NCBI GenBank assembly: GCA_030690215.1
Contig: JAUYHD010000016.1
Location: 17,681-81,680, forward strand
Direction: 5' to 3'
Length of the DNA: 64,000 nucleotides
DNA from: a bacterium
Lineage (GTDB): Bacteria; Patescibacteriota; Minisyncoccia; 1-14-0-10-42-19
Shown in pieces: positions 3,319 through 46,545 of the stretch. The position numbers and the translations under genes were made by a program. The notes beneath the pieces are model-generated. The model ran no database searches. It was given only the letters and a program-made list of their open reading frames with translations, and was not told the origin of the DNA. How positions within the stretch are numbered: the first letter of the stretch is position 1; every line of letters begins with the position of its first letter.

Positions 3319-3720
3319 GCAAAATCGGACCGTCTTCCTTGCCGCGTCTACTAGCGAATTTCGACGATTTGAACAACGGACCATTGTTTCTTTAACCATA
3401 TATAGCATCCGTCAGACGTAGATGCGGCTTCCGATTTAGCCAAACGGGGCAAACCCCGTAGTGAAAAATAGCATGGTTGTTCTTACGCCTCATCGCTAAC
3501 AATACAATGAACCGCAAACTGTGGCGTTGGTGTAAAACAGAGAAACCCACACATCGAACAACAAAGGCGTTATGCTATTTTCTACTAACGGGGCAAACCC
3601 AGCTCCACTTTTGTGATAAGAACGCATAGATAAAGCGTGATTTTTCCATAGTATGAGTTTTTGGGAGCGCAGGCTCAATACAAAAGTGGGGCTGGGCAAA
3701 CCCCATTGGGCACTACTGTC
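3300..3720. repeat. Composite MITE-like repeat region (CCCCGTTAGGC / GCCAAACGGGG termini). Homologous in reverse orientation to 46200-46545 and related to 41270-41330.
   Basis: The reverse complement of 3305-3420 aligns with 46255-46370 (CGTCTGACGGAT...GCTAGTAGACGCG...GATTTTGCCTAACGGGG). Confidence 0.6.
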
Positions 3721-3783: not shown

Positions 3784-4719
3784 CTATTCATTCGGGTGGG
3801 CTTTTTCTTTTTGTAAAAGATATTGATAGGCGGAGAGCGCCGCTTTTACCGCATCTCCAGCGGAAATATTGTTCTGCTTATACATTTCGTCGGTCACGTC
3901 TCCAGCCGCCCAGATTCCCTCCTTTGAAGTAGCCGCGGTTCTGTGATCAATAATAATCTCTCCGTATTTATTTTTTTCAACCAAGGTTCCCAAAAATTCC
4001 GAATTAGGAACGGCGCCGATTTCAACAAAAACCCCGGTCACATCAAGCGTACGTTCTTCCCCGCTTACCCTATCCTTATATGTAAGCCCTTTTACAAATT
4101 TATCTCCTAATACCTTAACGGTTTGCGCATTCATAATCGCGCCTTTAAACTTTTCTGATTTTTGAATATGTTCAAATGTCACCGGATCTCCTTTAATTGA
4201 GTCGGAATATTCGAGCAAATAAATTTCGGATGCGTACGGAATTAGATCCTGTACTGCTTCAAGCCCCGCGTTTCCTCCGCCGACTACCGCAACCTTCTGT
4301 CCGGCAAAAATAGGCGCATCACACGTGGAACAAAACGCAACTCCCTTACCGTTAAATTCTTCTTCGCCGGGGATTCCCATTTTTCTCCTTCGCGATCCGC
4401 TTGCTAAAATCAGCGTCCTGGCATCATAGGTACCCGTGCCCGTCGTTACCCGAAAACCACCTTCTATTTCTTCGGCTTTTTCTACCCGCTCCGAGAGAAT
4501 CTCAATGCCTTCTTGGGCGCGCGCGTGTTCTTCTAATTTTTGAGCGAGCTCGGATCCGGGAATGCTCACCATCCCAATCCAGTTAAAAATCTCCGCGGAT
4601 ACGGACGACTGCCCGCCGAATGACTCCGCAATCATAAGCGTTTTTATTTTTTTGCGCGCGGCATATACAGCTGCCGCCACCCCTCCCGGTCCTCCGCCGA
4701 TAATAATTGTGTCGTACAT
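3784..4719 (-). CDS. trxB: Thioredoxin-disulfide reductase
   Basis: MYDTIIIGGGPGG FAD motif, CSTCDA redox-active site, GGGNAG NADPH motif. Confidence 0.9.
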   Translation of the reverse strand: MYDTIIIGGGPGGVAAAVYAARKKIKTLMIAESFGGQSSVSAEIFNWIGMVSIPGSELAQKLEEHARAQEGIEILSERVEKAEEIEGGFRVTTGTGTYDARTLILASGSRRRKMGIPGEEEFNGKGVAFCSTCDAPIFAGQKVAVVGGGNAGLEAVQDLIPYASEIYLLEYSDSIKGDPVTFEHIQKSEKFKGAIMNAQTVKVLGDKFVKGLTYKDRVSGEERTLDVTGVFVEIGAVPNSEFLGTLVEKNKYGEIIIDHRTAATSKEGIWAAGDVTDEMYKQNNISAGDAVKAALSAYQYLLQKEKAHPNE

Positions 4720-6920: not shown

Positions 6921-6935
6921 TCCCGACAGCAAAGG

Positions 6936-7006
6936 TGGACCCGCGGAGAATCGAACTCCGGCCTACCGGATGCAAACCGGTCGTTTTACCACTGAACTAC
7001 GGGCCC
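6936..7006 (-). tRNA. tRNA-Ala (anticodon TGC)
   Basis: Reverse complement GGGCCCGTAGTTCAGTGGTAAAACGACCGGTTTGCATCCGGTAGGCCGGAGTTCGATTCTCCGCGGGTCCA; G3:U70 Ala identity pair; cloverleaf folds; no encoded CCA. Confidence 0.9.
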
Positions 7007-7176: not shown

Positions 7177-7225
7177 TCAACCCCGTTAGATGAGCAGAGT
7201 TTGGAACGCTCTACCTAATGGGGCA
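7177..7225. repeat. Palindromic REP-like element CCCCGTTAGATGAGC...GCTCTACCTAATGGGG
   Basis: One of at least six copies in the window (7177, 26752, 33549, 36513, 45838, 50455). Confidence 0.7.
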
Positions 7226-15371: not shown

Positions 15372-16646
15372 ATGTTGGACATCAAATTCATACGAGAAAA
15401 CCCCGATTTGATTAAAGAAGCCGCGCGCAAAAAACGGGTAGATTTTAATGTCCTCAAACTCATTGACGTGGATAAAAAACGGCGGGAAGGGCTTGCCGAA
15501 ATTGAAAAACTCCGCGCGTTCCAAAACAAAGCATCAGATACTATCGCGACTATCAAAGACGAAACAAAGAAAAAAGCAGCCATTGAAGATTTGCGCGATA
15601 TAAAAGACAATCTTTCTAAAAAAGAATCCGAACTCAAAAAAATAGTGCCCGAATGGGAAAAACTCATGCATGATGTTCCGAACATCCCCGATCTCTCCGT
15701 ACCCGAAGGAACAACCGATGAAGAAAATACGGAAGTGCGCCAAAGTTCTAAGCCAAAACCATTCGGCTTCCCGGCGAAAGACCATGTTGAATTGCTGGAG
15801 TCCTTGGGTCTTGCCGACCTTGAGCGCGGGACGAAAGTTTCCGGATTTCGCGGATATTTTCTCAAACAAGAAGCGACCCTTCTCTCCATGGCGCTCTGGC
15901 AATTTACCATGGATACCGTAACAAAAAAGGGATATGAACCGGTTCTCGCTCCCGCGTTAGTGCGTGAAGAAAATCTTTTTGGAACGGGGCATTTTCCCCA
16001 AGCGCGCGAGGATGTATACAAGCTTGAACATGACGAATTATATCTTTCTGCAACTGCAGAAATCCCACTCATGGGATATTATCGCGATGAAATATTGGAA
16101 GAAGATATACTCCCTAAAAAATTTGTTGCGTTTTCTCCATGCTTCCGCAGAGAGGCGGGATCGCACGGCAAAGACACAAAAGGCATTTATCGCTTGCATG
16201 AATTTTTTAAAGTAGAACAATTGATTTTTGCGCCAAACGATCATGAGCTGTCTGTCCAACTGCATGAGGAATTAACCGCAAACTCGGAAAGCATTCTTCA
16301 GGCATTAGAATTGCCGTACCGGGTAGTGACGGTAGCCGCAGGACAGCTTGGGCGGGCACACGTAAAAACATACGATCTTGAGGTCTGGATTCCGTCAGAA
16401 AAACGTTATCGCGAATCCCATTCGTCTTCGTATTACCATGATTTTCAAACACGCCGGCTCAACATCCGCTACCGCGCCAAAGATGGCGAGATGCGTTTTT
16501 GCCATTCCCTTAACAACACGGCAATTGCAACCCCCCGCATTCTTATTTCTATCCTTGAAAATTATCAGCAAAAAGACGGGAGCGTGCGCATCCCGGCCGT
16601 ACTCCAAACATATCTCGGGAAAACAGCAATCAAACCAAAAAATTAA
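15372..16646 (+). CDS. serS: Seryl-tRNA synthetase
   Basis: MLDIKFIRENPD N-terminal coiled-coil arm; class II motifs (FRRE, GxGxGxxR-like) in the C-terminal half. Confidence 0.9.
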   Translation: MLDIKFIRENPDLIKEAARKKRVDFNVLKLIDVDKKRREGLAEIEKLRAFQNKASDTIATIKDETKKKAAIEDLRDIKDNLSKKESELKKIVPEWEKLMHDVPNIPDLSVPEGTTDEENTEVRQSSKPKPFGFPAKDHVELLESLGLADLERGTKVSGFRGYFLKQEATLLSMALWQFTMDTVTKKGYEPVLAPALVREENLFGTGHFPQAREDVYKLEHDELYLSATAEIPLMGYYRDEILEEDILPKKFVAFSPCFRREAGSHGKDTKGIYRLHEFFKVEQLIFAPNDHELSVQLHEELTANSESILQALELPYRVVTVAAGQLGRAHVKTYDLEVWIPSEKRYRESHSSSYYHDFQTRRLNIRYRAKDGEMRFCHSLNNTAIATPRILISILENYQQKDGSVRIPAVLQTYLGKTAIKPKN

Positions 16647-16730
16647 ATTTTTAATTTATAATTTCTAATTAATTTTTAATGATTCAATTTTGAAAACAGT
16701 TTAAAAATTTAAAATTGAAAATTAAAAATT

Positions 16731-17540
16731 ATGACTAAAGACCCCCTTCGCCGATCGCGGCGCTTTAAACGAAACAGACTTTTTAAGCGTTTTGCCCTGT
16801 TTGGAGGAGGGATTTTGGTTTGCTCAGCACTCGGCGTAGGATTTTTTTATATTCCCTATTTTTCCATTACCGCGGTCTCCCTTGAAGATCTCCGAACCCT
16901 TCCGGAAAAAGATATTACCGTGGAAATAAGCGCTCATCTGGATAGAAAAACGTGGGGGTTGCTTCCTCAAAATAATTTTTTTGTTTTTCTTTTTACCGCA
17001 TCCCGTCTGGAACAAACACTCAAACAAAAATTCCCTAAAATAAAATCAATAACAATCAAAAAACGCCCCCCCCATGCCATTGCCGTGCTGTTTGAGGAAC
17101 GGAAAATTTGGGCAACAATCTGCAAAGACGCATCTTGCTTTTACGCTGATGAGGAGGGTTTTCTTTTTGGAAAGTCATCGCGTATTTCAGGGTCGCTCTT
17201 TTTTAGCATTGAAGACAGGCGGAACGTCACCCATGCGATAGGAACGACCATCGCGAGCCCCGAAGAATTTAAAAATATAAAAACGCTCCTCCAGCGAATA
17301 GAAACCGTTACCGGCGCTTCTTTTTCAGCCCTCATGCTTTCTGGGTCAGAAGACCTTATCTCAAAATATGAAATAAAAACAAAAGATGGATGGCGCATTA
17401 TTCTTGATTCAAAAACAAACGGCGAGCTTGCCGCCGCAAACTTCATTTCCGCATTTGAGGGCATTCTCCAAAAAAATATGGAAGGTATTGATTATATTGA
17501 TGTGCGTCTAGAAAATAAAATTTTCTATAAATATAAATAA
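16731..17540 (+). CDS. FtsQ/DivIB-like cell division protein (basic N-terminus, one TM, POTRA-like)
   Basis: RRSRRFKRNR then a TM helix then a periplasmic domain; call based on topology only. Confidence 0.35.
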   Translation: MTKDPLRRSRRFKRNRLFKRFALFGGGILVCSALGVGFFYIPYFSITAVSLEDLRTLPEKDITVEISAHLDRKTWGLLPQNNFFVFLFTASRLEQTLKQKFPKIKSITIKKRPPHAIAVLFEERKIWATICKDASCFYADEEGFLFGKSSRISGSLFFSIEDRRNVTHAIGTTIASPEEFKNIKTLLQRIETVTGASFSALMLSGSEDLISKYEIKTKDGWRIILDSKTNGELAAANFISAFEGILQKNMEGIDYIDVRLENKIFYKYK

Positions 17541-19388: not shown

Positions 19389-19403
19389 CCGCACTAAAAA
19401 TTT

Positions 19404-19475
19404 GGGCACATAGTTCAGTGGTAGAACGCTGTCCTGATAAGACAGAGGTGCTAGGTTCGATTCCTAGTGTGCCCA
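19404..19475 (+). tRNA. tRNA-Ile (anticodon GAT)
   Basis: GGGCACATAGTTCAGTGGTAGAACGCTGTCCTGATAAGACAGAGGTGCTAGGTTCGATTCCTAGTGTGCCCA; cloverleaf folds; no encoded CCA. Confidence 0.9.
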
Positions 19476-19489
19476 TAAATTTTCCCAAA

Positions 19490-24358: not shown

Positions 24359-25378
24359 ATGGCAGTCATTAAAAAACATCCGATTCTTGCCGGCATAGGA
24401 ATAGGAGCGCTTCTCCTAGTAACTATCTTTCTGGTACTTATCTCGCTTACCCCCGCAAAAACCCCAAAAACATACGGTGTCACCTTCTCCCCCTTTTACG
24501 CGGAACGTTTCAATGTTCATTGGAAAGATGCGTATATTGCAATTCTTGACGATCTTGGCGTAAAGCACATTCGCCTTTCTGCGTATTGGAACGAGGTAGA
24601 AAAAACAGAACGTGTTTTTAATTTTTCCGATCTTGACTGGCAAATTCAAGAGGCGGAAAAACGGAATGTGGATATTGTGCTCGCCATCGGCAAAAAACTC
24701 CCTCGCTGGCCGGAGTGCCACATCCCCGAGTGGATAGAGGGCCTTACGCCCGAAGAACAACATGAAAAACTGCTTCGTTATATTTCAGAAACCATTCTTC
24801 GCTATAGGGACTCTCCGGCAATCACTCTATGGCAAATTGAAAATGAACCATTACTGCCATTCGGCGAATGTGTCCATATTTCTGAACAAGAGCTGGAAAA
24901 TGAACTGGCATTCGTGCGCGCGCTTGATTCGCGCCCCATACTTATCACCGCGTCAGGAGAACTCTCATTCTGGACAAAGGAAATAAAATACGCCGATGTA
25001 TTCGGCTCTACTCTCTATCGCATTGTATGGAACGATTCTCTCAAAAGACATATCACCTACCCCCTCCCCTCGTCCTTTTATCGCGCAAAACAAACTATCG
25101 CGCGCCTATTTGGAGGCAATAAACCGATGCTCGTTATAGAACTTCAGGGAGAATCTTGGAACAAAAAAATGACATACGAACTCCCCATAGAAGAACAGTA
25201 TATATCCATGAATCCCGAACGATTCCAGGGTGTTCTTTCGTATGCCTCGCGCACCGGCTTTGACACATTTTATCTATGGGGTGTTGAGTGGTGGTATTGG
25301 TTAAAAGTTACGCAAGATAAACCCGAAATGTGGGATATAGCGAAAGAAGCGATATATAATGCGAATATAGAAAAATAA
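24359..25378 (+). CDS. Membrane-anchored GH-A clan glycoside hydrolase (GH5-like, IENEP acid/base motif)
   Basis: N-terminal TM; WQIENEP; TIM-barrel-like length. Confidence 0.5.
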   Translation: MAVIKKHPILAGIGIGALLLVTIFLVLISLTPAKTPKTYGVTFSPFYAERFNVHWKDAYIAILDDLGVKHIRLSAYWNEVEKTERVFNFSDLDWQIQEAEKRNVDIVLAIGKKLPRWPECHIPEWIEGLTPEEQHEKLLRYISETILRYRDSPAITLWQIENEPLLPFGECVHISEQELENELAFVRALDSRPILITASGELSFWTKEIKYADVFGSTLYRIVWNDSLKRHITYPLPSSFYRAKQTIARLFGGNKPMLVIELQGESWNKKMTYELPIEEQYISMNPERFQGVLSYASRTGFDTFYLWGVEWWYWLKVTQDKPEMWDIAKEAIYNANIEK

Positions 25379-25393
25379 TATGGCCATAACGCA

Positions 25394-25490
25394 AAGCGTA
25401 AAACGAAAAGTTCAAAACTAATGTGAAATAATTTCAACAAAGTTGAAATTATTATTCCTAAGTTTTACGTTTTTATTTTTGAGCTTTTAG
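25394..25490. repeat. 95-bp AT-rich hairpin element (GTAAAACGAAAAGTTCAAAAC...GTTTTACGTTTTTATTTTTGAGC); near-identical copy inside 16S rRNA V1 at 34063-34170
   Basis: About 95% identity over about 95 nt read directly. Confidence 0.8.
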
Positions 25491-25537: not shown

Positions 25538-26740
25538 ATGAAATACGCTTTCCCTGATGGTTTTCTATGGGGTGCTTCTACCTCCTCTCATCAAGTAGAA
25601 GGCGGGAACACAAACCAATGGTCTGAATGGGAGAAAAAAAATGCAACGCGGCTCGCATCTGAAGCAACCAAAAAACATGGCACATTACCATCGTGGAACG
25701 ATATCCGAAAAGAAGCCAAAAATCCGCAAAATTATATTTCAGGAATTGCCTGCGACCACTATAACCGTTTTGAAGAAGATTTTGATATCGCAAAATCTCT
25801 AGGACATACGGCGCATCGCCTTTCTATAGAATGGTCGCGCGTTGAACCTCGCGAGGGATTTTTTGACGAAAAAGAAATCGCCCACTATCAACGCGTGATA
25901 CAAGCGCTTCGCGCGCGGAACATTGAGCCGTTTGTCACTCTTTGGCACTGGACGCTTCCATTCTGGGTTTCAAAACAGGGCAGTTGGGAAAACAAAAAAA
26001 CAATTTCGGATTTTGTCCGATACGCAAAAAAACTTGCGGAATCGCTACCGGAGGTACGGTTCTGGGTGACGCTCAACGAACCGCTCATTTATACCGGCAT
26101 GTCGTACATGGTTGGGACGTGGCCTCCACAAAAAAAATCGGTTATCGCTTACATTCGGGTAATACATAACCTCATAACGGCGCATAAGGACGCCTACCGT
26201 GTCATGCGCACCTCCGATAACCATATTGGCATCGCAAAACACAATATTGCATTTACCGGAATCGGTGCGATGTCTGCGCGCTGGTGGTTTAACCGATATT
26301 TTTTGGAAAAAATTAAAAATCATCAAGATTTTATCGGGTTAAATTATTACCAGCACAAAAACATGTTGTTTGGGAAAAATAATAAAAAAAACCCCACCGA
26401 TGTCGGCTGGGAAATATACCCCGAAGGAATATATCGAGTTCTTAAAGAACTCGCGCCCTACAAAAAACCAGTCTATATTACTGAAAACGGAATCGCAGAC
26501 GCGCACGATACAAAAAGGACGCAATTCATAAAAGACCATCTTATATGGATACACAAAGCAATCGCAGAGGGAGTTGGTGTGCGGGGGTATCTGTATTGGT
26601 CGCTCTTGGACAATTTTGAATGGAGTGATGGATTCTGGCCGCGATTCGGACTCGTAGAAGTTGACCGCCAAACCCTTGAACGGCGCATCCGTCCAAGCGC
26701 TCATGAGTACGCAAAAATTATAAAAAATAATGGTTTTTAA
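25538..26740 (+). CDS. Glycoside hydrolase family 1 beta-glucosidase
   Basis: FLWGASTSSHQVEGG N-terminus, TLNEP acid/base, ITENG nucleophile. Confidence 0.85.
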   Translation: MKYAFPDGFLWGASTSSHQVEGGNTNQWSEWEKKNATRLASEATKKHGTLPSWNDIRKEAKNPQNYISGIACDHYNRFEEDFDIAKSLGHTAHRLSIEWSRVEPREGFFDEKEIAHYQRVIQALRARNIEPFVTLWHWTLPFWVSKQGSWENKKTISDFVRYAKKLAESLPEVRFWVTLNEPLIYTGMSYMVGTWPPQKKSVIAYIRVIHNLITAHKDAYRVMRTSDNHIGIAKHNIAFTGIGAMSARWWFNRYFLEKIKNHQDFIGLNYYQHKNMLFGKNNKKNPTDVGWEIYPEGIYRVLKELAPYKKPVYITENGIADAHDTKRTQFIKDHLIWIHKAIAEGVGVRGYLYWSLLDNFEWSDGFWPRFGLVEVDRQTLERRIRPSAHEYAKIIKNNGF

Positions 26741-26744
26741 ATTT

Positions 26745-26960
26745 AGAGCATTGCCCCCGTTAGATAGGGCGTTGCGAAGCCCGCTCATCTAACGGGGTTG
26801 ACCCCGTAGAGCAATATCGTATGATGCATTCTTATACGTCATTTTATCAAACAACATTTATGAAAAAGCAAGAAAACAAACTAATGCATGTGTCGCTGGC
26901 GGCGAACGCATGACGTATTATGCGATATTGTCTAACGGGGCTGGGTTGACATAAATAAAA
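26745..26960. repeat. Composite palindromic repeat (CCCCGTTAGAT...CTAACGGGG plus GACCCCGTAGAGCAATATCG...), homologous to 46360-46545
   Basis: Shared blocks CCCCGTAGAGCAATATCG(T/C)ATGAT and TTATGCGAT...CTAACGGGG. Confidence 0.6.
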
Positions 26961-27852: not shown

Positions 27853-30800
27853 ATGAAAAAAAATCTGTTCGGGGTTCTGACACTTGGAATCCTGGTTATT
27901 GTATCAAGTTTCGTTTCTACATCCGATGTTGCCGTAGCAGCACCTGTCCCTGGCAGCATAACCGTGTTTGCTTCTGATACTGGTGTTAACGACGCAACCG
28001 TGGGTACGCGAATTTGGGGCAATCCTCAAAATGTTTCAAGCAGTGATGACGTGTCCGCCCAGGCAAACTTCATAGAGGACCAGGATTTGATTACGCGGTA
28101 TCTCCGCGTTGCTCCTCAATCACTATCTGCAATCCCCGCAGGAAGCACTATTACCGGCATACAAGTTAGCGTTGAAAAGAAAAGGGGGGCAGCGGTTACT
28201 GTTAGGGATTATTCTATACGCCTTTATAAATCGGCGGGTTTTATAGGAAACAACAAAGCCGATACTGGCACTAACTGGCCCGCGTCAGACCAAACCTTCA
28301 CGTATGGGGGGTCGGGAGACTTATGGGGCGCCACATGGACAAGAGACGAAGTAGTAAATAATTTGCAGGTTGGGATTTCCGCCCAAAATACTTTTAACGG
28401 AGGGGCAGGGGCCGTCATTGATTCTATTCAATTCACTATTTGGTATGAATACACTCCGCCCGCCCCAACCGTAATTGAAGCAGACAACACCGTGTTTGCT
28501 GCAACTACCGGCGTCAACGACACAACCGTGGGTACAAAAATTTGGGGTACTACCAATAATATCGCGGCAAGCGATGATGCGTACTCACAAGTAAACCTTT
28601 TGACAGGCGGAGATATATCAAGGTATCTCCGTGTTGCTCCGCAGTCACTTTCTTCAATTCCTGAAGGGAGCACAATTAAAGGCATACAAGTCAGCATTGA
28701 GAAAAGTAGAGGTACGCAATTTGTTAAAGATTATTCTATACGCCTCTACAAATCCGGAACGGGCTACATAGGCAGCGACAAAGCTAACACAAGCGTTAAC
28801 TGGCCTGCTTTAGATGAAATAGTTACCCATGGAGGTAATGGTGATTTGTGGGGGACCACATGGACCAGAGATGAAGTGGTTAATAATTTGGAAGTGGGAA
28901 TTTCCGCCCAAAACCAAACTACCACTTCAGCAGGAGCAAAGATCGATTCCATACAGTTTACTATTTGGTATGAATACACTCCGCCCGCCCCAACCGTTGA
29001 CCTAAAAGCAAACAGCGCCAACGGACCAATATCAATTGACTACAACACAGGTGCAACACTTTCGTGGGCTTCGACAAACGCAACATCGTGTGCCGCATCA
29101 AACGCATGGTCCGGAACAAAAGGCACATCAGGGTCAGAATCAACCGGAAATCTTACAGCATCAAAAACATACACGATAACGTGTACAGGGACAGGGGGAA
29201 GCGCAAATGATAGCGTTACAATAAATGTCCTCGCACCACCGCCCCCACCTCCTCCGCCACCGCCTCCTCCGCCTCCTCCGGCAACAACTGTATGCCAAGG
29301 CTCTGTAACTCTCTATCAACACATCAACTATATCGGTTATTCAGCGGGTTTTGATGTTGGCACCTACACCCTTGCACAACTTCAAGCATGCGGAGTTATT
29401 AACAACGACATATCTTCAATGAAGGTACCGAATGGCTACCAGGCAACGTTATATGATGGAGACAACTATTCAGGAATAAGTCTTACGCGAACTACTGACG
29501 ACAGCACATTGGTAGATGACGGGTTTAATGATTTAACTACATCGCTACGCGTAACAACCATTTCAACAACACCCACTCCTCCACCTCCGCCACCTCCATC
29601 GCCGGAACCTTCTCCAACTCCCCCACCGCCACCTCCTCCAACAAGCAACCTTGCTTTCCAAATTAATGACAAAATCCAAGTAACATCAGGACCTCTCAAT
29701 GTAAGAAGTTGCGCAAGCTTATCTTGCAACTCTCTTGGTATACAACCAACAGGTTCTTTGGGGTCAATTATCGGAGGCCCAACATTTGCAGATGGATTTT
29801 TCTGGTGGAATATCAATTACGATAACGCTCCGGATGGTTGGTCGGTTGAAAATTTCTTAACTCTCGTAACCTCAACTCCTCTACCACCTCCTCCACCGCC
29901 ACCGCCTCCAGCACCAGAACCTTCTCCAGCTCCACCGCCGCCACCTCCTCCAACAAGCAACCTTGCTTTCCAAATTAATGACCGTATTCAAGTAAACACA
30001 GGGAGCTCGGAATTTAATCTTAATGTCCGATCAACAGCAAATGGCACGATCGTTGGACAGCAATCAAACGGTGCGTTGGGAACTATTATCGGTGGGCCTC
30101 AAAGTGCTGGCAGCCACACATGGTGGAATGTTAATTTTGATGTAGCGCCTGATGGATGGGTTGCTGGAGATTTTCTTGTCACCAGTTCATCTCCTTCTCC
30201 AACACCTCCACCTCCGCCACCTCCTCCAGCACCGGAACCTTCTCCAACTCCCCCACCGCCACCTCCTCCAACAACAACCCTACTTTCTATTCCCGGAACC
30301 ATACAAGCAGAAAGCTATAAAGTAGGGGGCGAGGGTATTGGGTATCATGACACTACCCCAACAAACGATGGGGGCGCCGGGACTCGCAATGATGGAGTGG
30401 ATATAAAAGATGTCCCGGGTGAAGGTTTGACTATCGGATTTACAAATATCGGCGAATGGCTTGCATACGATGTAAGTGTCTCCCAAGGAGGGACATACTC
30501 TATTGATCTCCGCATCGCAAACGGAGAAACAACAAATCGTTCTCTCCACCTGGAAATAGACGGAACAAATAAAACCGGTTCGGTTACCGTGCCATCTACC
30601 GGATCATGGAACACACAAACAACTATTACAGTGCCCAATGTTTCCCTTACCCAAGGAACTCATGTATTGCGCGTTGTGTTTGACAATACCCCGCTTGATC
30701 TCAATTGGATGTTGTTTAATTTTGTTTCTTCCGGAAGTCCGTCTGCGCCTTCTGTGTCCACAAAATTCCAGATAAACGACCGCGTGCAAACAACAGACAA

Positions 30801-32835
30801 TCTTAATGTCCGCTCAATACCTTCAACTGTAACTGGGGTGGTGCTCGGCACGCACCAAACGGGATCACTCGGGACAATTATTGGCGGACCCGTTTTTGCA
30901 AACAATATTTGGTGGTGGCAAGTAAATTACGATAACAATCCTGACGGCTGGTCTGCTGAAAACTTTTTAACAAAATCAACAACGTCAGCACCACCGCCGC
31001 CGCCTCCTCCGACAACCATAGACATCAAAGCAAATAGCTCCGATGGACCAATATCCATTGCGTATAATTCAAGCGCAACACTTAGTTGGACTTCCTCAAA
31101 CACAACATCTTGCACCGCATCAAACGCATGGTCCGGAACAAAAAGCACATCGGGATCAGAATCAACCGGAAATCTTACGGAATCAAAAACATACACAATG
31201 ACCTGCACAGGAACTGGAGGAAGCGCAAATGACAGTGTCACGGTTAATGTAAATCCTCTGTCGACTCCTCCGCCTCCTCCCCCACCACCTCCATCTTCTA
31301 GCAATGAAGCACTCATATATGTAGATAATCAAAATTCCTCTGCTTCAGATTCTAACCCAGGAACAGTAACAAGCCCGCTAAGAACTATCGGCAAAGCCGC
31401 TCAACTAGCAAACTCAAAAAATAAGAGCGGAATTCCGGTACGAATTATTGTAAAAGCAGGCACATATCGAGAGTCGGTTGCATTCAATGATGAAACCGGC
31501 ATCACAACATCACCTATTACTATTGAGGGATCCCCCATCGGACAAGCAATTATTTCAGGATCAGATGTATGGACAGGATGGACTTCTACATCAGGTCTCT
31601 GGGTTCATGACTGGCCTTATGACTGGGGCGCGGTTTCCTGGCTTGGCGTACCCTCCGGAGAACTCGCAAGACGCCGCGAAATGGTATTCGTAAACGGTGA
31701 ACACTACATGCAAGCTCTTTCAACGGGAGAACTGACGGACAAAACCTTTTATGTAGATGAGGTCAACAATAAAATCTATGTAAAATCTTCCACCAATCTG
31801 AACACCTCAAAAGTAGAAGTCGGCACCCGGAAAGGAATATTCTATGCAAAGAATAGGCAAAACTTTACAATACGGGGCATGATATTCCAACACGATACCA
31901 CTGCCGGTGATTTATCTGGTGTTAATTTCGTCCTCATGAAAAACCTTGTCATAGAAGACAGTAAATTTTTGTGGAATAACTGGGGTGGGATGCAAATTAC
32001 AAGAGGTGAGGGAATTACCGTACGCAGACTCGTTGGTAATTATAATGGCGGGAAAGGAACAGAAATGGTGTTTAGCAAAAATGCCTTATGGGAAGATATA
32101 GAAAGTTCATATAACAACTGGCGCGGAGATTCGGGAGGGTTCAACCAATGGAGTGTCGCAGGTTCAAAGCACTTAAGGAACCGAGATGTTACATATCGTA
32201 ATTTTGTCGTCGCCAACAACAAAGCGAGAGGATTTTGGCTCGATTATGATAACTCTGGCATTGTTTTTGACGGTCTTATTTCTATTAATAATTATGAGAG
32301 CGGTATCTCTCTTGAAGCCAACCAGGGTCCGATACTTGTAAAAAATAGCGCAATCTGTGGGAACGGCGACTATGACGGAGTAAGAACCTCAACTTCATGG
32401 GGCGGACTTATTTCTGCAAACTCCATGAACATTACTATCCAGGATAGTGTTTTCTATCGGAACGTTGTTACTAATATTCGGACTCACGGAGCAAACATCC
32501 GACCGATCAACGATTTCGTAACAGGAGGGGTGCATGACGGAATATCGAAAAATTGGACATGGACGGGCATCGTTGATGTGGGCCAAGGCACAAATGAGTT
32601 GCTTGTGTATAGAGTAGATGACGCTACTGAATTTTTGGATACCCTTACGGTAAACAACAATATTTATTGGAACCCTACTGACCCAAATACATTCAATGCT
32701 AATGGGAGAACAGATTTTGCCGGATGGAAAACTAAAACCGGTCAAGAGCAAAACTCGGTATTTGCCGATCCAAATACTCTTTCTTTGACCAGCCAACAAA
32801 GAGCACTGCTAGACAGATGCATTGCTAGCTACTAA
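27853..32835 (+). CDS. Giant secreted multidomain surface protein (1660 aa). Signal peptide; 2x about 175-aa repeat; 2x Ig-like; poly-Pro linkers; beta/gamma-crystallin; 3x SH3b-like; CBM6-like; C-terminal right-handed beta-helix.
   Basis: Duplicated NxNGPISIxYNxxATLSWxSxNxTSCxASNAWSGTK Ig-like units (29000-29235, 31017-31255); Greek-key CQGSVTLYQHINYIGY...; CBM6-like LSIPGTIQAESYKVGGEGIGYHD...GEWLAYDV...LNWMLF; beta-helix NFTIRGMIFQHD... Confidence 0.7.
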   Translation: MKKNLFGVLTLGILVIVSSFVSTSDVAVAAPVPGSITVFASDTGVNDATVGTRIWGNPQNVSSSDDVSAQANFIEDQDLITRYLRVAPQSLSAIPAGSTITGIQVSVEKKRGAAVTVRDYSIRLYKSAGFIGNNKADTGTNWPASDQTFTYGGSGDLWGATWTRDEVVNNLQVGISAQNTFNGGAGAVIDSIQFTIWYEYTPPAPTVIEADNTVFAATTGVNDTTVGTKIWGTTNNIAASDDAYSQVNLLTGGDISRYLRVAPQSLSSIPEGSTIKGIQVSIEKSRGTQFVKDYSIRLYKSGTGYIGSDKANTSVNWPALDEIVTHGGNGDLWGTTWTRDEVVNNLEVGISAQNQTTTSAGAKIDSIQFTIWYEYTPPAPTVDLKANSANGPISIDYNTGATLSWASTNATSCAASNAWSGTKGTSGSESTGNLTASKTYTITCTGTGGSANDSVTINVLAPPPPPPPPPPPPPPPATTVCQGSVTLYQHINYIGYSAGFDVGTYTLAQLQACGVINNDISSMKVPNGYQATLYDGDNYSGISLTRTTDDSTLVDDGFNDLTTSLRVTTISTTPTPPPPPPPSPEPSPTPPPPPPPTSNLAFQINDKIQVTSGPLNVRSCASLSCNSLGIQPTGSLGSIIGGPTFADGFFWWNINYDNAPDGWSVENFLTLVTSTPLPPPPPPPPPAPEPSPAPPPPPPPTSNLAFQINDRIQVNTGSSEFNLNVRSTANGTIVGQQSNGALGTIIGGPQSAGSHTWWNVNFDVAPDGWVAGDFLVTSSSPSPTPPPPPPPPAPEPSPTPPPPPPPTTTLLSIPGTIQAESYKVGGEGIGYHDTTPTNDGGAGTRNDGVDIKDVPGEGLTIGFTNIGEWLAYDVSVSQGGTYSIDLRIANGETTNRSLHLEIDGTNKTGSVTVPSTGSWNTQTTITVPNVSLTQGTHVLRVVFDNTPLDLNWMLFNFVSSGSPSAPSVSTKFQINDRVQTTDNLNVRSIPSTVTGVVLGTHQTGSLGTIIGGPVFANNIWWWQVNYDNNPDGWSAENFLTKSTTSAPPPPPPPTTIDIKANSSDGPISIAYNSSATLSWTSSNTTSCTASNAWSGTKSTSGSESTGNLTESKTYTMTCTGTGGSANDSVTVNVNPLSTPPPPPPPPPSSSNEALIYVDNQNSSASDSNPGTVTSPLRTIGKAAQLANSKNKSGIPVRIIVKAGTYRESVAFNDETGITTSPITIEGSPIGQAIISGSDVWTGWTSTSGLWVHDWPYDWGAVSWLGVPSGELARRREMVFVNGEHYMQALSTGELTDKTFYVDEVNNKIYVKSSTNLNTSKVEVGTRKGIFYAKNRQNFTIRGMIFQHDTTAGDLSGVNFVLMKNLVIEDSKFLWNNWGGMQITRGEGITVRRLVGNYNGGKGTEMVFSKNALWEDIESSYNNWRGDSGGFNQWSVAGSKHLRNRDVTYRNFVVANNKARGFWLDYDNSGIVFDGLISINNYESGISLEANQGPILVKNSAICGNGDYDGVRTSTSWGGLISANSMNITIQDSVFYRNVVTNIRTHGANIRPINDFVTGGVHDGISKNWTWTGIVDVGQGTNELLVYRVDDATEFLDTLTVNNNIYWNPTDPNTFNANGRTDFAGWKTKTGQEQNSVFADPNTLSLTSQQRALLDRCIASY

Positions 32836-33548: not shown

Positions 33549-33598
33549 TTGACCCCGTTAGATGAGCGAGCTTTGAGAAGCTCTATCTAATGGGGCTT
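33549..33598. repeat. Palindromic REP-like element followed by a promoter-like TTGACC-17-TATACT
   Basis: CCCCGTTAGATGAGCGAGCTTTGAGAAGCTCTATCTAATGGGG then GCTTGACCTCAATAATAAAAGGATTATACT. Confidence 0.6.
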
Positions 33599-33960
33599 GA
33601 CCTCAATAATAAAAGGATTATACTGATACTTGGTATGAAAGACCCAATAATTGTTTAGCTTAATACGTTTTGTTTTTAACAAGTAAACCCACTGCTGTCT
33701 TTGGAGACAGTTTTTGTTTTCCAAAATAGCAGCGGGAGTACTTGGACCAGCAATTTTACAAAAGAGATTAATAAAGTAAGAATCTTTTAAAAACAAAAGA
33801 AAAAGAAATATGCGTTTTCTTTTGTTCCGTTCACATATTTCGCTTGCGCTGCGCGCAATCGCGAAATAAAGTGCCCCGTCGAATGACGGGGCGCGAGAGT
33901 GCGAGAAACTTTGAACGTCCGGTCATCCGACCGGACTCAAAAAGACTCGCTCACTCTCGT

Positions 33961-36192
33961 CTTTTTGAGAGTTTGATCCTAGCTCAGGATGAACGCTGGC
34001 GGCGTGGATAAGGCATGCAAGTCGTACGGTCGTGCCTCTCTATCGCTCAGCACTCCCTAAGCTCAAAGTGTAAAACGAAAAGTTCAAAACTAATGTGAAA
34101 TAATTTCAACAAAGTTGAAATTATTATTCCTCAGTTTTACGTTTTTATTTTTGAGTTTTTAGTTTGAGTGCCGAACGGCAGTGAGGCACGACAGTGGCAG
34201 ACGGGGTAGTAACACGTAGGTACATACCACTGAGACAAGAATAACCCAGAGAAATCTGGGATAATACTTGATAGTCTAGTGATCGATTTTCCCTCACAAG
34301 ATGTTTTAATTTTTAATTCTCAATTATCAATTTTCAATAAAAATTTGGAAATTGAAACTTTCTCGCCTCGCCGTAGCTTTAGCGAAGCGGAAACATTGTC
34401 CGCCAGAGGCGGATCCTCCTCCGGAGGAAAAATTCAAAACAGTCCTTGCGGGTAAAAATCGGTTACTAGTAAAGGTTCGTAAGAACCGCTCGGTGAATGG
34501 CCTGCGGGCTATCAGCTTGTTGGTGAGGTAACGGCTCACCAAGGCTATGACGGCTAGGGGGTGTGAGAGCATGGCCCCCACCAATGGAACTGAGACACGG
34601 TCCATACATCTACGGATGGCTGCAGTCGAGAATATTGGGCAATGGGCGAAAGCCTGACCCAGCGACGCCGCGTGCAGGATGAAGGCCTTCGGGCTGTAAA
34701 CTGCTTTTATGGGGGAGGAATCCCCTCCTTGAGGTTGAGTGTGGTACAATCACGCTATGTATTATGTATATATCCTGAAATTAAATAATGAAAAATTATA
34801 CATCGGATACACTGTGGATTTAAAAAGGCGTATTGTTGAACACGAAACAGGAATGAGTATGCATACTAAAAAATTTTTACCTTGCATGCTTGTTTATTAT
34901 GAAGCATACAAATCACGAAAAGATGCGATGAAGCGTGAGAAAAATCTAAAAAAATTCAAAAGTTCATACAGACAATTAAAAATACGTATTGCTTCAAGTA
35001 TATTCGACACCAAGGAGGGGATGACGTTACCCCATGAATAAGGGCTTGCTAACCTCGTGCCAGCAGCCGCGGTAATACGAGGGGCCCAAGCGTTATCCGG
35101 AATCACTGGGCGTAAAGGGTTCGTAGGGGGTTGTATTAGTCCTATGTTAAAGCCTTCGGCTTAACCGAAGAAATGCATAGGAAACGGTATAACTGGAGGG
35201 TGTGAGAGGCTGATGGAACTCACGGTGTAGGGGTGAAATCCGTTGATATCGTGGGGAACACCAAATGCGAAGGCAATCAGCTGGCGCATTCCTGACCCTG
35301 AAGAACGAAAGCGTGGGGATCGAAAAGGATTAGATACCCTTGTAGTCCACGCCCTAAACGTTGATGACTAGCTATTGGAAGTATCGACCCTTCCAGTGGC
35401 GTAGCTAACGCGTTAAGTCATCCGCCTGGGAATTACGATCGCAAGATTAAAACTCAAAGGAATAGACGGGGACTCGCACAAGCGGTGGAGCATGTGGTTC
35501 AATTCGATGATAAGCGAAAAACCTTACCAGGGCTAGAAATTCTAGTGAAGTCGACCCGAAAGGGACGATGTCTCACAAGGACACTAGGACAGGTGCTGCA
35601 TGGTTGTCGTCAGTTCGTGGTTTGAACTGTTCCCTTAAGTGGGTCAACGAACGCAACCCCCGTTGCCTGTTATACATGTCAGGCAAGACTGCCCCTCACT
35701 TTGCGCACAAGCGCAAAGTGAGTTTACTAGTTACGCCTTGCTCTAGTTTGCTAGTTTAAATTTTACAACTAGAAAACTAAAGTGAGCAGAGCGAACGTAA
35801 CTAGAAAACTCACTTTGTTCGTTTGCGAACAAAGTGAGGGGAGGAAGGTGGGGATGACGCCAAATCAGCATGGCCCTCGACGTCCTGGGCTACACACATG
35901 CTACAATGGCACGTACAAAGGGCCGCAAAAGAGCAATCTGGAGCAAATCCCATCAAAACGTGCCCTAGTTCGGATTGAGGTCTGCAACTTGACCTCATGA
36001 AGCTGGAATCGCTAGTAATCGCAGATCAGCACGCTGCGGTGAATACGTTCTCGAGTCTTGTACTCACCGCCCGTCAAGTCAGGGAAGTCGGGAGTACCCG
36101 AAGTGCCAGGTATCTGGCCCGAAGGTAAGCTCGATAACAAGGACTAAGTCGTAACAAGGCACGGCTAGCGGAAGCTGGTCGTGGATCATTAT
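33961..36192 (+). rRNA. 16S rRNA gene, about 2.23 kb, with four insertions. (a) 34063-34170 hairpin element; (b) about 34275-34480 V2 expansion; (c) about 34720-35020 GIY-YIG ORF; (d) about 35694-35848 palindromic insertion. The 3' end is ...GGATCATTATCT and lacks CCUCC.
   Basis: Conserved blocks AGAGTTTGATCCTAGCTCAG, GTGCCAGCAGCCGCGGTAATAC, GGATTAGATACCCTTGTAGTCC, GCATGTGGTTCAATTCGATG, TACACACCGCCCGTCA, AAGTCGTAACAAGG read in order. Confidence 0.9.
34757..35041 (+). CDS. GIY-YIG nuclease-family ORF embedded in the 16S rRNA V3 insertion (possible intron-encoded homing endonuclease)
   Basis: MYYVYILKLNNEKLYIGYTVDLKRRIVEHETG is a canonical GIY-YIG motif; the ORF 3' end runs into the conserved TGACGTTACC rRNA sequence. 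Confidence 0.7.
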   Translation: MYYVYILKLNNEKLYIGYTVDLKRRIVEHETGMSMHTKKFLPCMLVYYEAYKSRKDAMKREKNLKKFKSSYRQLKIRIASSIFDTKEGMTLPHE

Positions 36193-36338
36193 CTAAACTA
36201 TTTCCGATATTCATTTGATTTTTATCAAAAGAAGAAGCGGAACAGTTAGGCGATACTCCCACTGGGAGTAATAGGTGTTAGTCGCGGAGCCTTTAAATCG
36301 CGACTTGAACGGAGCAAAAGAAAACGCACATACACAAA

Positions 36339-36376
36339 GACCCCGAATCGCGTTTGACGCGACGGGGTTTTTGTTT
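36339..36376 (+). terminator. Rho-independent terminator downstream of 16S (GACCCCGAATCGCGTTTGACGCGACGGGGTTTTTG)
   Basis: The same CGCGTTTGACGCGACGG hairpin recurs at 3742-3770 and 21905-21945. Confidence 0.55.
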
Positions 36377-36378
36377 GC

Positions 36379-36507
36379 TTGACAAATAAAATAATCTTTG
36401 CTATCATGCGAGCACCTCACGTTTGAGGCCTATTTGATCGGATGACCTGTAGACCCAGGTCACACGGGGCGAGTTGCTGTAAAAAGCAAGCGCCCCTATT
36501 TTTTTTA
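36379..36507 (+). ncRNA. Candidate about 90-nt small RNA: sigma70-like promoter (TTGACA 36379-36384, 17-bp spacer, TATCAT 36402-36407) then internal hairpin then GGGGCGAGTTGCTGTAAAAAGCAAGCGCCCC + T8 terminator
   Basis: Promoter and terminator read directly; no family assignment possible. Confidence 0.3.
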
Positions 36508-36512
36508 CTTTT

Positions 36513-36590
36513 CATTGACCCAGTTAGATGAGCAAGCTTTGCGAAGCTCTATCTAACGGGGTTGACAATACTCCCCCATTCTGTAGAATA
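36513..36590 (+). promoter_or_regulatory. REP-like palindrome whose 3' arm supplies a -35 (CTAACGGGGTTGACA) for a TTGACA-17-TAGAAT promoter; about 200-nt structured leader upstream of the MoxR-vWA gene
   Basis: Sequence read directly; leader contains hairpin TGCCTTTTTCTATGCATAAAAGGCA. Confidence 0.45.
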
Positions 36591-41589: not shown

Positions 41590-41690
41590 AAACACAGATT
41601 AAAACTAATTACAGCTTTTTGCTTTACGTTGTAGTTTTGCGCTTTGAACTTTGCGTTTTTAGCCTTACTTGTCTTTATATTATTTAAAAT
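41590..41690. repeat. Intergenic repeat (GCTTTACGTTGTAGTTTTGCGCTTTGAACTTTGCGTTTT) present in inverted orientation at 44795-44890
   Basis: Reverse complement aligns with CTCAAAACGCAAAGTTTAAAGCGTAAAACTACAACGTAAAGC at 44800-44842. Confidence 0.6.
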
Positions 41691-43959: not shown

Positions 43960-44095
43960 ACATTAAAAACCAAATTCCAAATAACAAATATCAAACAATA
44001 TCCAATTTTCAATAGGCAAGCCCCAAACCGTGTTTTAAATTTGTAATTTTGAATTTGTTTGAGATTTGGATTTTGGTATTTGTCATTTTATCAAA
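43960..44095. repeat. AT-rich simple-sequence region of CAAAT/ATTCCAAA-type units (family shared with 4845-4930, the trmD insert, the 16S V2 insert and 62200-62260)
   Basis: Read directly. Confidence 0.55.
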
Positions 44096-44783
44096 TCCAC
44101 CCTTTTACCTCCAGCGCTTTCCGTGCCGCCTCTTCCTGCGCTATCTGCTTTGACGGGCCTTCGCCCTCCGCGACTTTCTCCTCATCCAAAAAAATACCGA
44201 TAACAAAATGCTTATCGTGGTCAGGCCCCCACTCTTTGATAACGCTGTATGTCGGCGTAACACCGTGTCTATCCTGCGCTTCTTCCTGAAACATGCTCTT
44301 TGGGTCTTTGTATAATTTTTTCTCAATAATTTCGTCTAACTGCGGCATGAGTACGCGCTCCAAAAAATCCTTTACTTCACCATATCCCCGGTCCAGATAC
44401 AAAGCGCCCGAAAGCGCCTCAAACGTATTTGCAAGAATATATTGGCGCGCGCGTCCCATATCCTTTGACTCTCCGCGTGAAAGGAGAAGGTGGTCGCCTA
44501 CATGCAGAATGCCTGCGACTTCCGCGAGCATCTTGGTATTCACAAGAGCAGCCCGAAAGCTCGTGAGTTCCCCTTCGGGCTTTTCAGGAAAACGCAAAAA
44601 CAAAGCTTCGGTAATAACAAGCTCAATGACCGCATCGCCCAAAAATTCAAGGCGTTCATTATGCGGGTATTTCCAATCGGTGTTCTCGTTTAAATACGAA
44701 CGATGCGTAAGGGCTTCATATAACAGACTCTTGTTTATAAAGCTGACGCCGAGACTCTGCTCAAGACCGGATAAATCTTTCAT
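44091..44783 (-). CDS. rnc: Ribonuclease III
   Basis: ERLEFLGDAV signature; C-terminal dsRBD. Confidence 0.9.
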   Translation of the reverse strand: MKDLSGLEQSLGVSFINKSLLYEALTHRSYLNENTDWKYPHNERLEFLGDAVIELVITEALFLRFPEKPEGELTSFRAALVNTKMLAEVAGILHVGDHLLLSRGESKDMGRARQYILANTFEALSGALYLDRGYGEVKDFLERVLMPQLDEIIEKKLYKDPKSMFQEEAQDRHGVTPTYSVIKEWGPDHDKHFVIGIFLDEEKVAEGEGPSKQIAQEEAARKALEVKGWI

Positions 44784-44897
44784 CGTTGAAACTCAAAACG
44801 CAAAGTTTAAAGCGTAAAACTACAACGTAAAGCTAAAAGGTTTTTTGTTTTAAGCTGTAGTTTTGACTTTTGAGCTCTAAACTTTGAGCTTTTTAAA

Positions 44898-46199: not shown

Positions 46200-46545
46200 T
46201 CTATAGTAACGAAAAAGGGGCGGTATGTAAAGCCCCGTTTGGCTAAATCGAAAGCCGCGTCTACGTCTGACGGATACTATACCCGATTAAAGAAACAGCA
46301 GTCCATTGTCTGGGCTATCGAGGTTCGCTAGTAGACGCGACAAGGAAGACGATTCGATTTTGCCTAACGGGGTAAAGCCCCGTAGAGCAATATCGCATGA
46401 TATGTCATGCGTTCGCCTTTGGGGAGAAAAGACCACCGCGCTCGCTTATTTTTCTTGCATTAGGCATTTCCGCACAATGACCCATAAGAATGCATTATGC
46501 GATTTTGCCTAACGGGGTAAAGCCCCGTTTGGCTAAATCGTCATG
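46200..46545. repeat. Composite MITE-like repeat cluster (two nested element families) homologous to 3300-3720 and 26745-26960
   Basis: See 3300-3720 and 26745-26960. Confidence 0.6.

Follow-up and report, generated by a model that had tools for sequence, protein, structure and literature searches.

A 16S rRNA gene of a Parcubacteria bacterium with four hairpin insertions, one of them enclosing a predicted Slx1-like GIY-YIG nuclease gene

Insertions in ribosomal RNA (rRNA) genes that contain open reading frames (ORFs) for GIY-YIG proteins have been reported from bacteria of the Candidate Phyla Radiation (CPR), where 15 such ORFs were counted in 16S and 15 in 23S rRNA genes, all of them in non-intron insertions at poorly conserved sites (Tsurumaki et al., 2024; PMC11270868). 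In that survey these insertions were described as sparse and as lying "outside the context of homing". The present work deals with a 16S rRNA gene that has four insertions, one of them containing a GIY-YIG ORF, and is found in a stretch of 64,000 nucleotides (referred to below as the window) of contig JAUYHD010000016.1 (positions 17,681 to 81,680; assembly GCA_030690215.1). Like the CPR insertions described earlier (Brown et al., 2015; PMC11270868), this locus combines a CPR host and several 16S insertions of at least 100 nt with a PF01541 ORF in a non-intron insertion at the poorly conserved top of a stem-loop, and a CPR 16S gene with a non-intron GIY-YIG insertion is of a kind already published (Brown et al., 2015; Tsurumaki et al., 2024). 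An earlier note on this DNA had considered the combination of a GIY-YIG ORF with several short non-coding insertions to be less usual; this is fair, but in view of the published count for CPR 16S genes the combination is not new. What this locus and its relatives provide in addition, and what is unmentioned in PMC11270868 and PMC9297842, are inverted repeats around the ORF, an Slx1-like affiliation of its product and a leaderless promoter signal. Further additions are the recurrence of the ORF at helices h6, h9, h17 and h44 of 16S rRNA and the finding that members of this family are located also in RNase P RNA genes and at those for transfer RNA (tRNA) and transfer-messenger RNA (tmRNA). Literature searches on GIY-YIG proteins in connection with RNase P, tRNA or Patescibacteria, or on UPF0213/YhbQ, returned nothing relevant, their coverage being incomplete. 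Within this same limited coverage, no description was found of the architecture to which our results point, viz. a "nuclease gene in a hairpin" that is shared across an ORF family and linked to stable-RNA genes.

Judged by analogy, the closest characterised counterpart of these insertions is the intervening sequence (IVS) in helix 45 of the 23S rRNA of Coxiella burnetii, a hairpin with a 28-bp stem that has an ORF (S23p) in its loop and is cut by RNase III (PMC4990558). The features shared with this and other IVSs excised by RNase III, including those of Salmonella and Leptospira, are a hairpin at the tip of a peripheral helix, a terminal stem of about 20–28 bp, an ORF in the loop, an RNase III encoded by the host and an element that is regarded as selfish. 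However, the known IVSs are located in h25 or h45 of 23S rRNA, whereas those reported here are in h6, h9, h17 and h40 of 16S rRNA. In addition, the GIY-YIG ORF is under purifying selection in contrast to the decaying S23p, it reads via the 3' arm of the hairpin into the rRNA, and the excision of the present elements is a predicted one.

The protein encoded by this ORF resembles the Slx1-like/UPF0213 proteins of known structure (1zg2, BH0048; 1ywl, EF2693) in its size, its minimal catalytic domain and its lack of both an auxiliary domain and an invariant C-terminal Asn, but the genes for the latter are ordinary chromosomal genes. To our knowledge, there is no report of a gene for an Slx1-like/UPF0213 protein that is nested in an RNA gene or enclosed by inverted repeats. 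With the GIY-YIG homing endonucleases (I-TevI in group I introns and the free-standing T4 Seg proteins, including SegB in a tRNA gene cluster) it shares the catalytic fold, the tie to conserved RNA genes or other conserved genes and a presumed selfish nature. It differs from them in being without a DNA-binding domain (94 aa versus about 245 aa), in its low score against the group I intron endonuclease family, in representing another GIY-YIG lineage (PMC1564403) and in occurring in a context that is neither intron nor phage. A partial likeness also exists to miniature inverted-repeat transposable elements (MITEs) and repetitive extragenic palindromic (REP)-like repeats, in that the core of the h6 insertion has an intergenic copy and both copies fold as hairpins, but only two copies are seen here and no target-site duplication is visible for them. 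As far as we know, insertion into an rRNA helix is unusual for repeats of this kind.

From the evidence presented below, we consider it on balance probable that this 16S gene has been colonised at h6, h9, h17 and h40 by hairpin-type, non-intron IVSs, which include a mobile ORF cassette. The gene itself is a full-length bacterial 16S: its match to RF00177 by cmscan covers model positions 1–1533 with a score of 1340.9 bits (gathering score 50), and the 530 loop, the 790 loop and the 926, 1400 and 1492 regions are all intact in the alignments. With 2236 nt, its length exceeds that of the model by 703 nt. The signs of a transcription unit (a processing stem formed by distant flanks, a promoter-like site and a terminator-like hairpin; Table 1) are all present as sequence signals around the gene, which stands alone, as no 23S or 5S gene is found in the 64-kb window. 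The locus is thus probably the working, single-copy 16S gene of a Parcubacteria (CPR/Patescibacteria) bacterium. The earlier note had recognised the ordered 16S blocks, an excess of about 700 nt, four insertions and a CPR-like host, and in all of these respects it agrees with our results: four insertions are placed by the cmscan alignments, and the nearest 16S sequences that were retrieved are those of Kaiserbacteria, Giovannonibacteria and Ryanbacteria, with core identities of 80–85%.

The limits of the insertions were derived from two sources, viz. the cmscan alignment with RF00177 and an alignment with seven Parcubacteria 16S sequences that do not contain them (Table 1). In the RF00177 structure the insertion points are all located in the loops of peripheral helices (h6, h9, h17 and h40), the second of these being identified as h9 from its position in the consensus structure, where it is the hairpin that precedes the AAAG-h10 element. 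On folding, each of the insertions continues its host helix as a long stalk, which consists of 11 bp plus 10 bp at h17, of an outer 15 bp at h9 and of more than 30 bp at h40. The minimum free energies are −64.2, −71.6, −96.7 and −78.2 kcal/mol for h6, h9, h17 and h40, respectively, and all four insertions fold far better than their shuffled versions (z-scores from −6.8 to −9.4, including −7.96 for h6, −7.21 for h9 and −9.42 for h40), no shuffle being as good. Some of the earlier descriptions of these insertions require modification. The "95-bp hairpin" in V1 is indeed a hairpin, but it corresponds to a 99-nt repeat core within an insertion of 142–170 nt; the V2 expansion is not about 130 nt but about 175–210 nt in length; and the fourth insertion, which is palindromic as claimed, is not near E. 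coli position 1130 but in the h40 loop, at about E. coli 1165–1170.

A search of positions 33700–36500 with Rfam covariance models revealed no match to either group I (RF00028) or group II (RF00029) introns at E ≤ 10, and what this permissive search did return, in insertions 1 and 4, were matches to miRNA-type hairpins that are attributable to chance. The sole ORF, which encodes a GIY-YIG domain of 94 aa, is likewise not the usual protein of a group II intron. As a positive control, the same models score group I introns with 63–80 bits in three related loci (L003, L006 and L008; the loci from other assemblies are designated by L numbers), where the introns occupy conserved positions of the core (around E. 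coli 788, and towards the 3' end). Because true group I introns in related loci are detected by the same tool, the negative result is meaningful, and none of the four insertions is a group I or group II intron. Their location at helix tips, together with the long closing stems, represents the anatomy of RNase III-type IVSs or of expansion segments and not that of introns. The question of whether these insertions are spliced introns or retained expansion segments, which had been left open, is in this manner narrowed by the removal of introns.

The seven relatives that have none of the four insertions (from GTDB genomes labelled Kaiserbacteria, Giovannonibacteria, Ryanbacteria and others) were retrieved by means of a 33-nt lineage-specific 16S pattern. 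The h17 insertion is missing from all of them, and the h6 site is empty in L013–L016. L011 at h6 and h40, and L015 at h40, have occupants that are unrelated to those in the window, and the h6 and h40 loops therefore represent recurrent points of insertion. Among closer relatives, the 16S fragment L001 (positions 1085–2572; also found as L002) is 97–98% identical to the window in the conserved 16S segments and 75% identical in the segment 34195–34277. A mosaic or recombinant origin of the gene was considered from this difference and rejected, since the 75%-identity stretch is the normally hypervariable V2. In L001 three GIY-YIG ORFs of 82, 89 and 94 aa are present at h6, h9 and h17, with pN values (proportion of nonsynonymous differences) of 0.37–0.43 to one another, whereas in the window h6 and h9 hold unrelated, non-coding hairpins.

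The insertion at h17 consists of two complementary arms with the GIY-YIG ORF between them. The last 12 or so codons of the ORF represent a read-through of the 3' arm, of the 3' strand of h17 and of the conserved GAATAAG, and its stop codon TAA (35039–35041) is within conserved 16S sequence. The pairing of the ends is shown by folding and by compensatory changes. In L003 the stalk is retained by changes on both strands (CCTTG/CAAGG to CTTTG/CAAAG, T-A to G-C, and an extra C-G pair), and the stalk in L030 is a perfect one of about 20 bp whose sequence is wholly different from that in the window. The insertion is present at the same site in L001/L002, in L003–L005 and in L030. The closest homologue of the encoded protein (P0001, 82% identity) is from the identical h17 site of L001/L002; the next (P0002, 69% identity) is from the same site in a more distant 16S that is represented in three assemblies (L003–L005), and the homologue at h17 of L030 is 53% identical. 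The dN/dS ratio for the ORF is 0.12 between the window and L001 and 0.07 between the window and L003. In view of these low values the protein is, therefore, under purifying selection now or has been so until recently. All of the invariant residues in an alignment of 16 family members are retained in the window ORF.

The conserved domain of the 94-aa protein ends near residue 82, with no C-terminal DNA-binding domain following it. Its score against TIGR01453 (the group I intron endonuclease family of NCBIfam) is 18.1 bits, below the cutoff of 56.05, and its best solved relatives are 1zg2 (E = 6e-8) and 1ywl (E = 6e-7). These two proteins belong to the bacterial Slx1-like lineage, which has a minimal GIY-YIG domain and is paralogous to the lineage of UvrC and the homing endonucleases (Dunin-Horkawicz et al., PMC1564403). 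In the 16-member alignment no invariant Asn is seen after E61. By these sequence criteria the ORF product is assigned to the Slx1-like minimal GIY-YIG lineage rather than to the homing-endonuclease lineage and is predicted to be a nuclease. The ORF had been called a canonical GIY-YIG gene; an intact PF01541 ORF that runs into the rRNA is certainly present, but it is not a canonical homing endonuclease, as only the domain is there, TIGR01453 is failed and the affiliation is Slx1-like. No other GIY-YIG gene was found in the 64-kb window.

To examine the distribution of this ORF family, a census was made of 80 metagenomic loci that encode the closest relatives of the ORF, which were classified by BLAST against the window 16S, by ARAGORN, by 23S and RNase P motifs and by Rfam. 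About 40 of the 80 are in or directly beside stable-RNA genes (16S, 23S, RNase P RNA, tRNA and tmRNA), and all of these are in the same orientation as the RNA gene. Seven ORFs are inside 16S genes, at h6 (L071, L097, L102), h9 (L080), h17 (L030) and the tip of h44 (L044, L068), and two are inside 23S genes (L101 and probably L099). Loci beyond the census add further examples at h44 (L006) and h6 (L021). Seven others are inside or abut RNase P RNA genes, with examples in the P3 loop (L028, L032, L034, L049, L103) and in the P12 loop (L043, 208–849), and in L034 two ORFs are found within one such gene. Searches of 40 "unexplained" loci at the Rfam gathering threshold missed three of the RNase P RNA genes that are split at P3 (L028, L032, L049), which were recovered by the motif search. 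At 18 loci a tRNA gene on the same strand (for Ala, Val, Ser, Trp, Pro, Lys or Gly) starts between −10 and +20 nt from the stop codon or overlaps the end of the ORF by read-through, and two further ORFs are located at tmRNA genes (L092, L046).

In 74 of 91 distinct elements the ORF lies between the arms of an inverted repeat whose length is 12 nt or more, with a median of 17 nt, the 95th percentile for 3000 control placements being 11 nt. The consensus of the arms across the different contexts is CCCC[C/T]C(A)C.../...GTG[A/G]GGGG. In ten of the tRNA-adjacent copies, a repeat of the first 10–11 nt of the tRNA immediately precedes the 5' arm; its sequence varies with the tRNA, and it looks like a duplication of the att type or of the target-site type. 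The loci showing it are L026, L029, L039, L045, L053, L054, L067 and L085 (also L088 and L098). The initial Gs of the tRNA form the end of the 3' arm in cassettes that abut a tRNA, and in some of the tRNA-adjacent copies the ORF either has its stop codon at 10 nt within the tRNA or continues through it. A separate observation concerns two Kaiserbacteria-like loci, in which the uvrC product (L017, 1762–2970; L019, 1577–2476) has the UvrC_M, UVR and RNaseH-like domains and no N-terminal GIY-YIG domain, and a stand-alone GIY-YIG gene for 83 aa is present at 4001–4252, about 1 kb downstream of uvrC and just before a tRNA-Ala gene. This could be either a gene-calling artefact or a split arrangement.

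An extended −10-like box precedes the ATG of the window ORF (Table 1), and the same layout is seen in 16S-embedded relatives at h6, h17 and h44. In 11 of the 13 distinct 16S-embedded ORFs TAnnnT is found 6–7 nt before the ATG (background 9%), and 8 of these also have TGn (background 0.7%). An internal promoter that gives rise to a leaderless mRNA for the ORF may be deduced from this pattern. We had earlier supposed that the ORF rides passively on the transcription of the host RNA and has no promoter, a view that was revised when the extended −10 box was seen in nearly all of the 16S-embedded copies. Among 63 long ORFs in the window, 13 show a −10-like TAnnnT 5–8 nt before the first ATG (background 6.8%), several of them with TGn, and this suggests that leaderless mRNAs may be common in this genome; starts with such a layout are found, for example, at 52150, 23439, 56810 and 15372 on the plus strand and at 14753 on the minus strand. 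In comparison, a 4-mer resembling the Shine-Dalgarno sequence precedes 7 of 50 long ORFs, versus a background of 8.5%. The 3' end of the 16S (36185–36196) reads GGATCATTATCT and does not contain the anti-Shine-Dalgarno CCUCC, with which the scarce use of Shine-Dalgarno sequences is in accordance. The loss of the anti-Shine-Dalgarno in a part of the Parcubacteria is already known (PMC9297842). Among the relatives the 16S 3' ends vary (TTCTCC, AATTCC, ATATCC).

The three other insertions are non-coding and differ in make-up. On sequence comparison, that at h6 is built around a dispersed palindromic repeat of its own genome: its 99-nt core has a second copy located between two glycoside-hydrolase genes (24359–25378 and 25538–26740), the intergenic copy folding as a hairpin with a z-score of −4.26. 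Two copies of this repeat are present within the 64 kb, and an exact search of metagenome_contigs with the 27-mer from its centre gave no hits. Besides its outer stalk, the h9 insertion contains three GC-rich hairpins and a part that is rich in AT; at 34291–34303 it reads CCCTCAC, then AAG, then ATG. The h40 insertion is a near-perfect palindrome that is bounded by CCCCTCAC and GTGAGGGG. On the plus strand of the window CCCTCAC is present at only two sites, 34291 in the h9 insertion and 35693 at h40. The h9 insertion carries, and that at h40 is bounded by, the terminal motif of the cassette, a resemblance that hints weakly at kinship with it. The AT-rich part of the h9 insertion (34307–34337) is 87% complementary to 16701–16731 over 31 nt and resembles the AT-rich periodic repeats found between genes elsewhere in this genome, including those at 1363–1428 and 16646–16711. 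Another inverted repeat in the window, of 48 nt and 92% complementary (41615–41662 and 44792–44839), brackets the smc-rnc gene pair, and in style (AAAGTTCAAAG, GTAAAAC) it is like the arms of the h6 repeat.

A complete rnc gene for RNase III is encoded in the window, its product containing the Pfam domains Ribonucleas_3_3 (5e-35) and dsrm (5.8e-14). As cited in PMC9297842, a comparison of genes with transcripts indicated that most CPR rRNA insertions are missing from the RNA (Brown et al., 2015), and it has been suggested that some CPR insertions are IVS-like (Tsurumaki et al., PMC11270868). Overall, the evidence favours hairpin-type intervening sequences over introns, and excision without religation would be their most likely fate. 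Our proposed account is as follows. In the pre-rRNA the ends of each insertion would pair and extend the host helix as a long stalk, and the folding of the 30S subunit should therefore be undisturbed. The stalks would be cut by the RNase III of this bacterium, giving a fragmented but functional 16S. The h17 insertion would be a mobile "ORF-in-a-hairpin" cassette, with inverted repeats around the gene for the 94-aa Slx1-like nuclease, and a leaderless mRNA for this gene may start from an extended −10 promoter of its own. By recognition of structure, and not of a long sequence, the nuclease might help the cassette to spread into DNA that forms hairpins. At h9 and h40 the insertions are ORF-less hairpins, perhaps relatives of the cassette.

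A broader proposal, which we put forward tentatively as a possibility short of even probability, is that Parcubacteria harbour a class of mobile elements so far undescribed, of which the h17 insertion is a member and in which an Slx1-like nuclease gene resides in the loop of an inverted-repeat hairpin, structured stable-RNA genes are colonised by the targeting of structure, and ORF-less hairpins are derivatives or relatives. The sites of such a class would comprise h6, h9, h17 and h44 of 16S rRNA, 23S rRNA, P3 and P12 of RNase P RNA, the 5' edge of tRNAs and tmRNA, and an own leaderless promoter would be usual in the 16S-embedded copies that were examined. Several observations weigh against these proposals. 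No convincing target-site duplication is seen at h17 by inspection, and a catalytic domain of 83–94 aa that has no DNA-binding domain has no demonstrated route to its own mobility. About half of the family is without an adjacent RNA gene that was detected. In the h6, h9 and h40 insertions no remnant of the ORF was found, as the scores of a family hidden Markov model for their six-frame translations did not exceed those for 600 shuffles, and at h40 the native hairpin with its tetraloop, which in L014 reads CTCCC-TCAC-GGGAG, may be all that CCCCTCAC represents. In L003 the −10 box is followed after 6 nt by an ATG that does not share the reading frame of the ORF. Lastly, if RNase III cuts the h17 stalk, the released fragment does not contain the stop codon of the ORF.

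Of the alternatives, the most probable, though still unlikely, is that the insertions are retained in the mature 16S as expansion segments, forming extra helices on the surface of the 30S subunit. All four extend peripheral helices and the three non-coding ones, with 140–175 nt, are of a size typical for expansion segments. In the 30S subunit the tips of h6, h9, h17 and h44 lie close together on the lower, solvent-exposed end of the body, where the expansion segments of eukaryotes are also located, and this also counts in favour of retention. However, the reported lack of most CPR insertions from RNA speaks against it, the long near-perfect duplexes are substrates of the RNase III type for an enzyme encoded in the same window, and the occupants of h6 and h9 differ completely between close relatives, which argues against a structural role in the ribosome. 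It is considerably less probable that the ORF is an ordinary cellular gene for an Slx1-like repair nuclease, which perhaps profits from the strong transcription of RNA genes and has no part in moving the insertion. An ancient origin, vertical inheritance and a link to repair are ascribed to the lineage (PMC1564403), the ORFs of about half of the relatives stand by themselves among genes for proteins, and the window has a single copy. Speaking against this are the multiple copies at single loci (three in the L001 16S and two in the RNase P RNA of L034), the insertion sites that differ between close relatives, the conserved inverted repeats that accompany the ORF in unrelated contexts and the 10–11-nt duplication of tRNA 5' ends.

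Two other explanations are very improbable. Self-splicing group I or II introns, with the ORF as an intron-borne homing endonuclease, are suggested by the frequency of introns in CPR 16S genes (PMC11270868) and by the real group I introns that L003 and L006 carry elsewhere in their 16S. Nevertheless, the intron models that recognise the latter find nothing here, the sites are helix tips of variable regions and not conserved core positions, and the insertions, which are 139–288 nt in length and mostly plain hairpin or ORF, have no space for a ribozyme core; moreover, every GIY-YIG-bearing insertion in the published survey is non-intron (PMC11270868). Equally little recommends the view that the locus is a dead rRNA pseudogene or that it was mis-assembled, for instance across the 99-nt repeat. 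The unusual length of the gene and the presence of a 97%-identical repeat 8.7 kb away would fit with this, but the covariance score is high over the full length and functional sites are intact, the complementary flanks restore the host helix at each insertion, which is not expected from a mis-join, the h17 insertion has the same junctions in independent assemblies (L001/L002 and L003–L005), and a processing stem and promoter-like and terminator-like sites flank the gene.

The hairpin IVS account provides a testable architecture for CPR rRNA insertions that have so far been left as "uncharacterised, not introns, not homing". That members of this ORF family are found within RNase P RNA and beside the genes for tRNA and tmRNA as well suggests a selfish element that is adapted to genes for structured RNAs, and the promoter-like signals suggest that an independently transcribed, leaderless protein gene may be nested within an rRNA gene. 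In practical terms, 16S primers and length filters fail on genes with insertions of this kind, and at the Rfam gathering threshold cassette-split RNase P RNA genes were overlooked.

Table 1. Features of the 16S rRNA locus and of related elements; positions are those of the window.
Feature	Position	Strand	Remarks
16S rRNA gene, full length	33961–36196	+	RF00177
Insertion 1 (cmscan limits)	34041–34182	+	142 nt, model positions 81–83; 34025–34194 by relatives; h6 tip (V1), non-coding long hairpin
99-nt palindromic repeat core of insertion 1	34064–34162	+	97% identical to 25392–25490
Second copy of 99-nt repeat	25392–25490	+	between glycoside-hydrolase genes
Insertion 2 (cmscan limits)	34287–34459	+	173 nt, model positions 188–192; 34278–34486 by relatives; h9 tip (V2), non-coding
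Insertion 3 (cmscan limits)	34729–35016	+	288 nt; 34721–35021 by relatives; h17 tip (V3), GIY-YIG hairpin cassette
h17 stalk, 5' arm (TCCCCTCCTTG..TTGAGTGTGG)	34721–34744	+	pairs with 34998–35021
Extended −10-like box TGgTACAAT	34742–34750	+	6 nt before ATG of ORF
GIY-YIG ORF, 94 aa and stop	34757–35041	+	PF01541, E = 9.7e-14
h17 stalk, 3' arm, also ORF codons	34998–35021	+	pairs with 34721–34744
Insertion 4 (cmscan limits)	35705–35843	+	139 nt, model positions 1157–1162; 35696–35837 by relatives; h40 loop, non-coding
Promoter-like site 5' of 16S, TTGACC-16-TATACT	33597–33624	+	consensus match only
Pre-16S processing stem, 5' half	33808–33833	+	26-nt inverted repeat, 92% complementary to 36306–36331
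Pre-16S processing stem, 3' half	36306–36331	+	92% complementary to 33808–33833
Terminator-like hairpin and T-run 3' of 16S	36348–36372	+	sequence signal only
RNase III gene (rnc), candidate stalk-cutting enzyme	44091–44783	−	tblastn against E. coli rnc, 42% identity, E = 6e-39

In the surroundings of the 16S gene, a 47-nt hairpin repeat (TTGACCCCGTTAGATGAGC...GCTCTATCTAATGGGG) is found on both sides of the transcription unit, at 33549–33595 and 36515–36561, with other copies at 7177–7223 on the plus strand and at 26755–26803 on the minus strand. Directly 3' of this repeat a promoter-like TTGAC(C/A)-N16-TAnAnT is present at 33597 and at 36562, and a related family, CCCCGTTAGGC, is found at 3309–3450 and 46232–46540. 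The genes for tRNA-Ala(UGC) and tRNA-Ile(GAU), which are the usual residents of the rRNA spacer, are dispersed in the window (6934–7006 on the minus strand and 19403–19476 on the plus strand). The next gene after the 16S, starting from 36799, encodes an AAA-type protein of 854 aa, and at 27853–32835 on the plus strand there is a gene for a 1660-aa protein with CBM35, SH3 and beta-helix domains and long internal repeats (families D1, D3–D5, D9 and D14).

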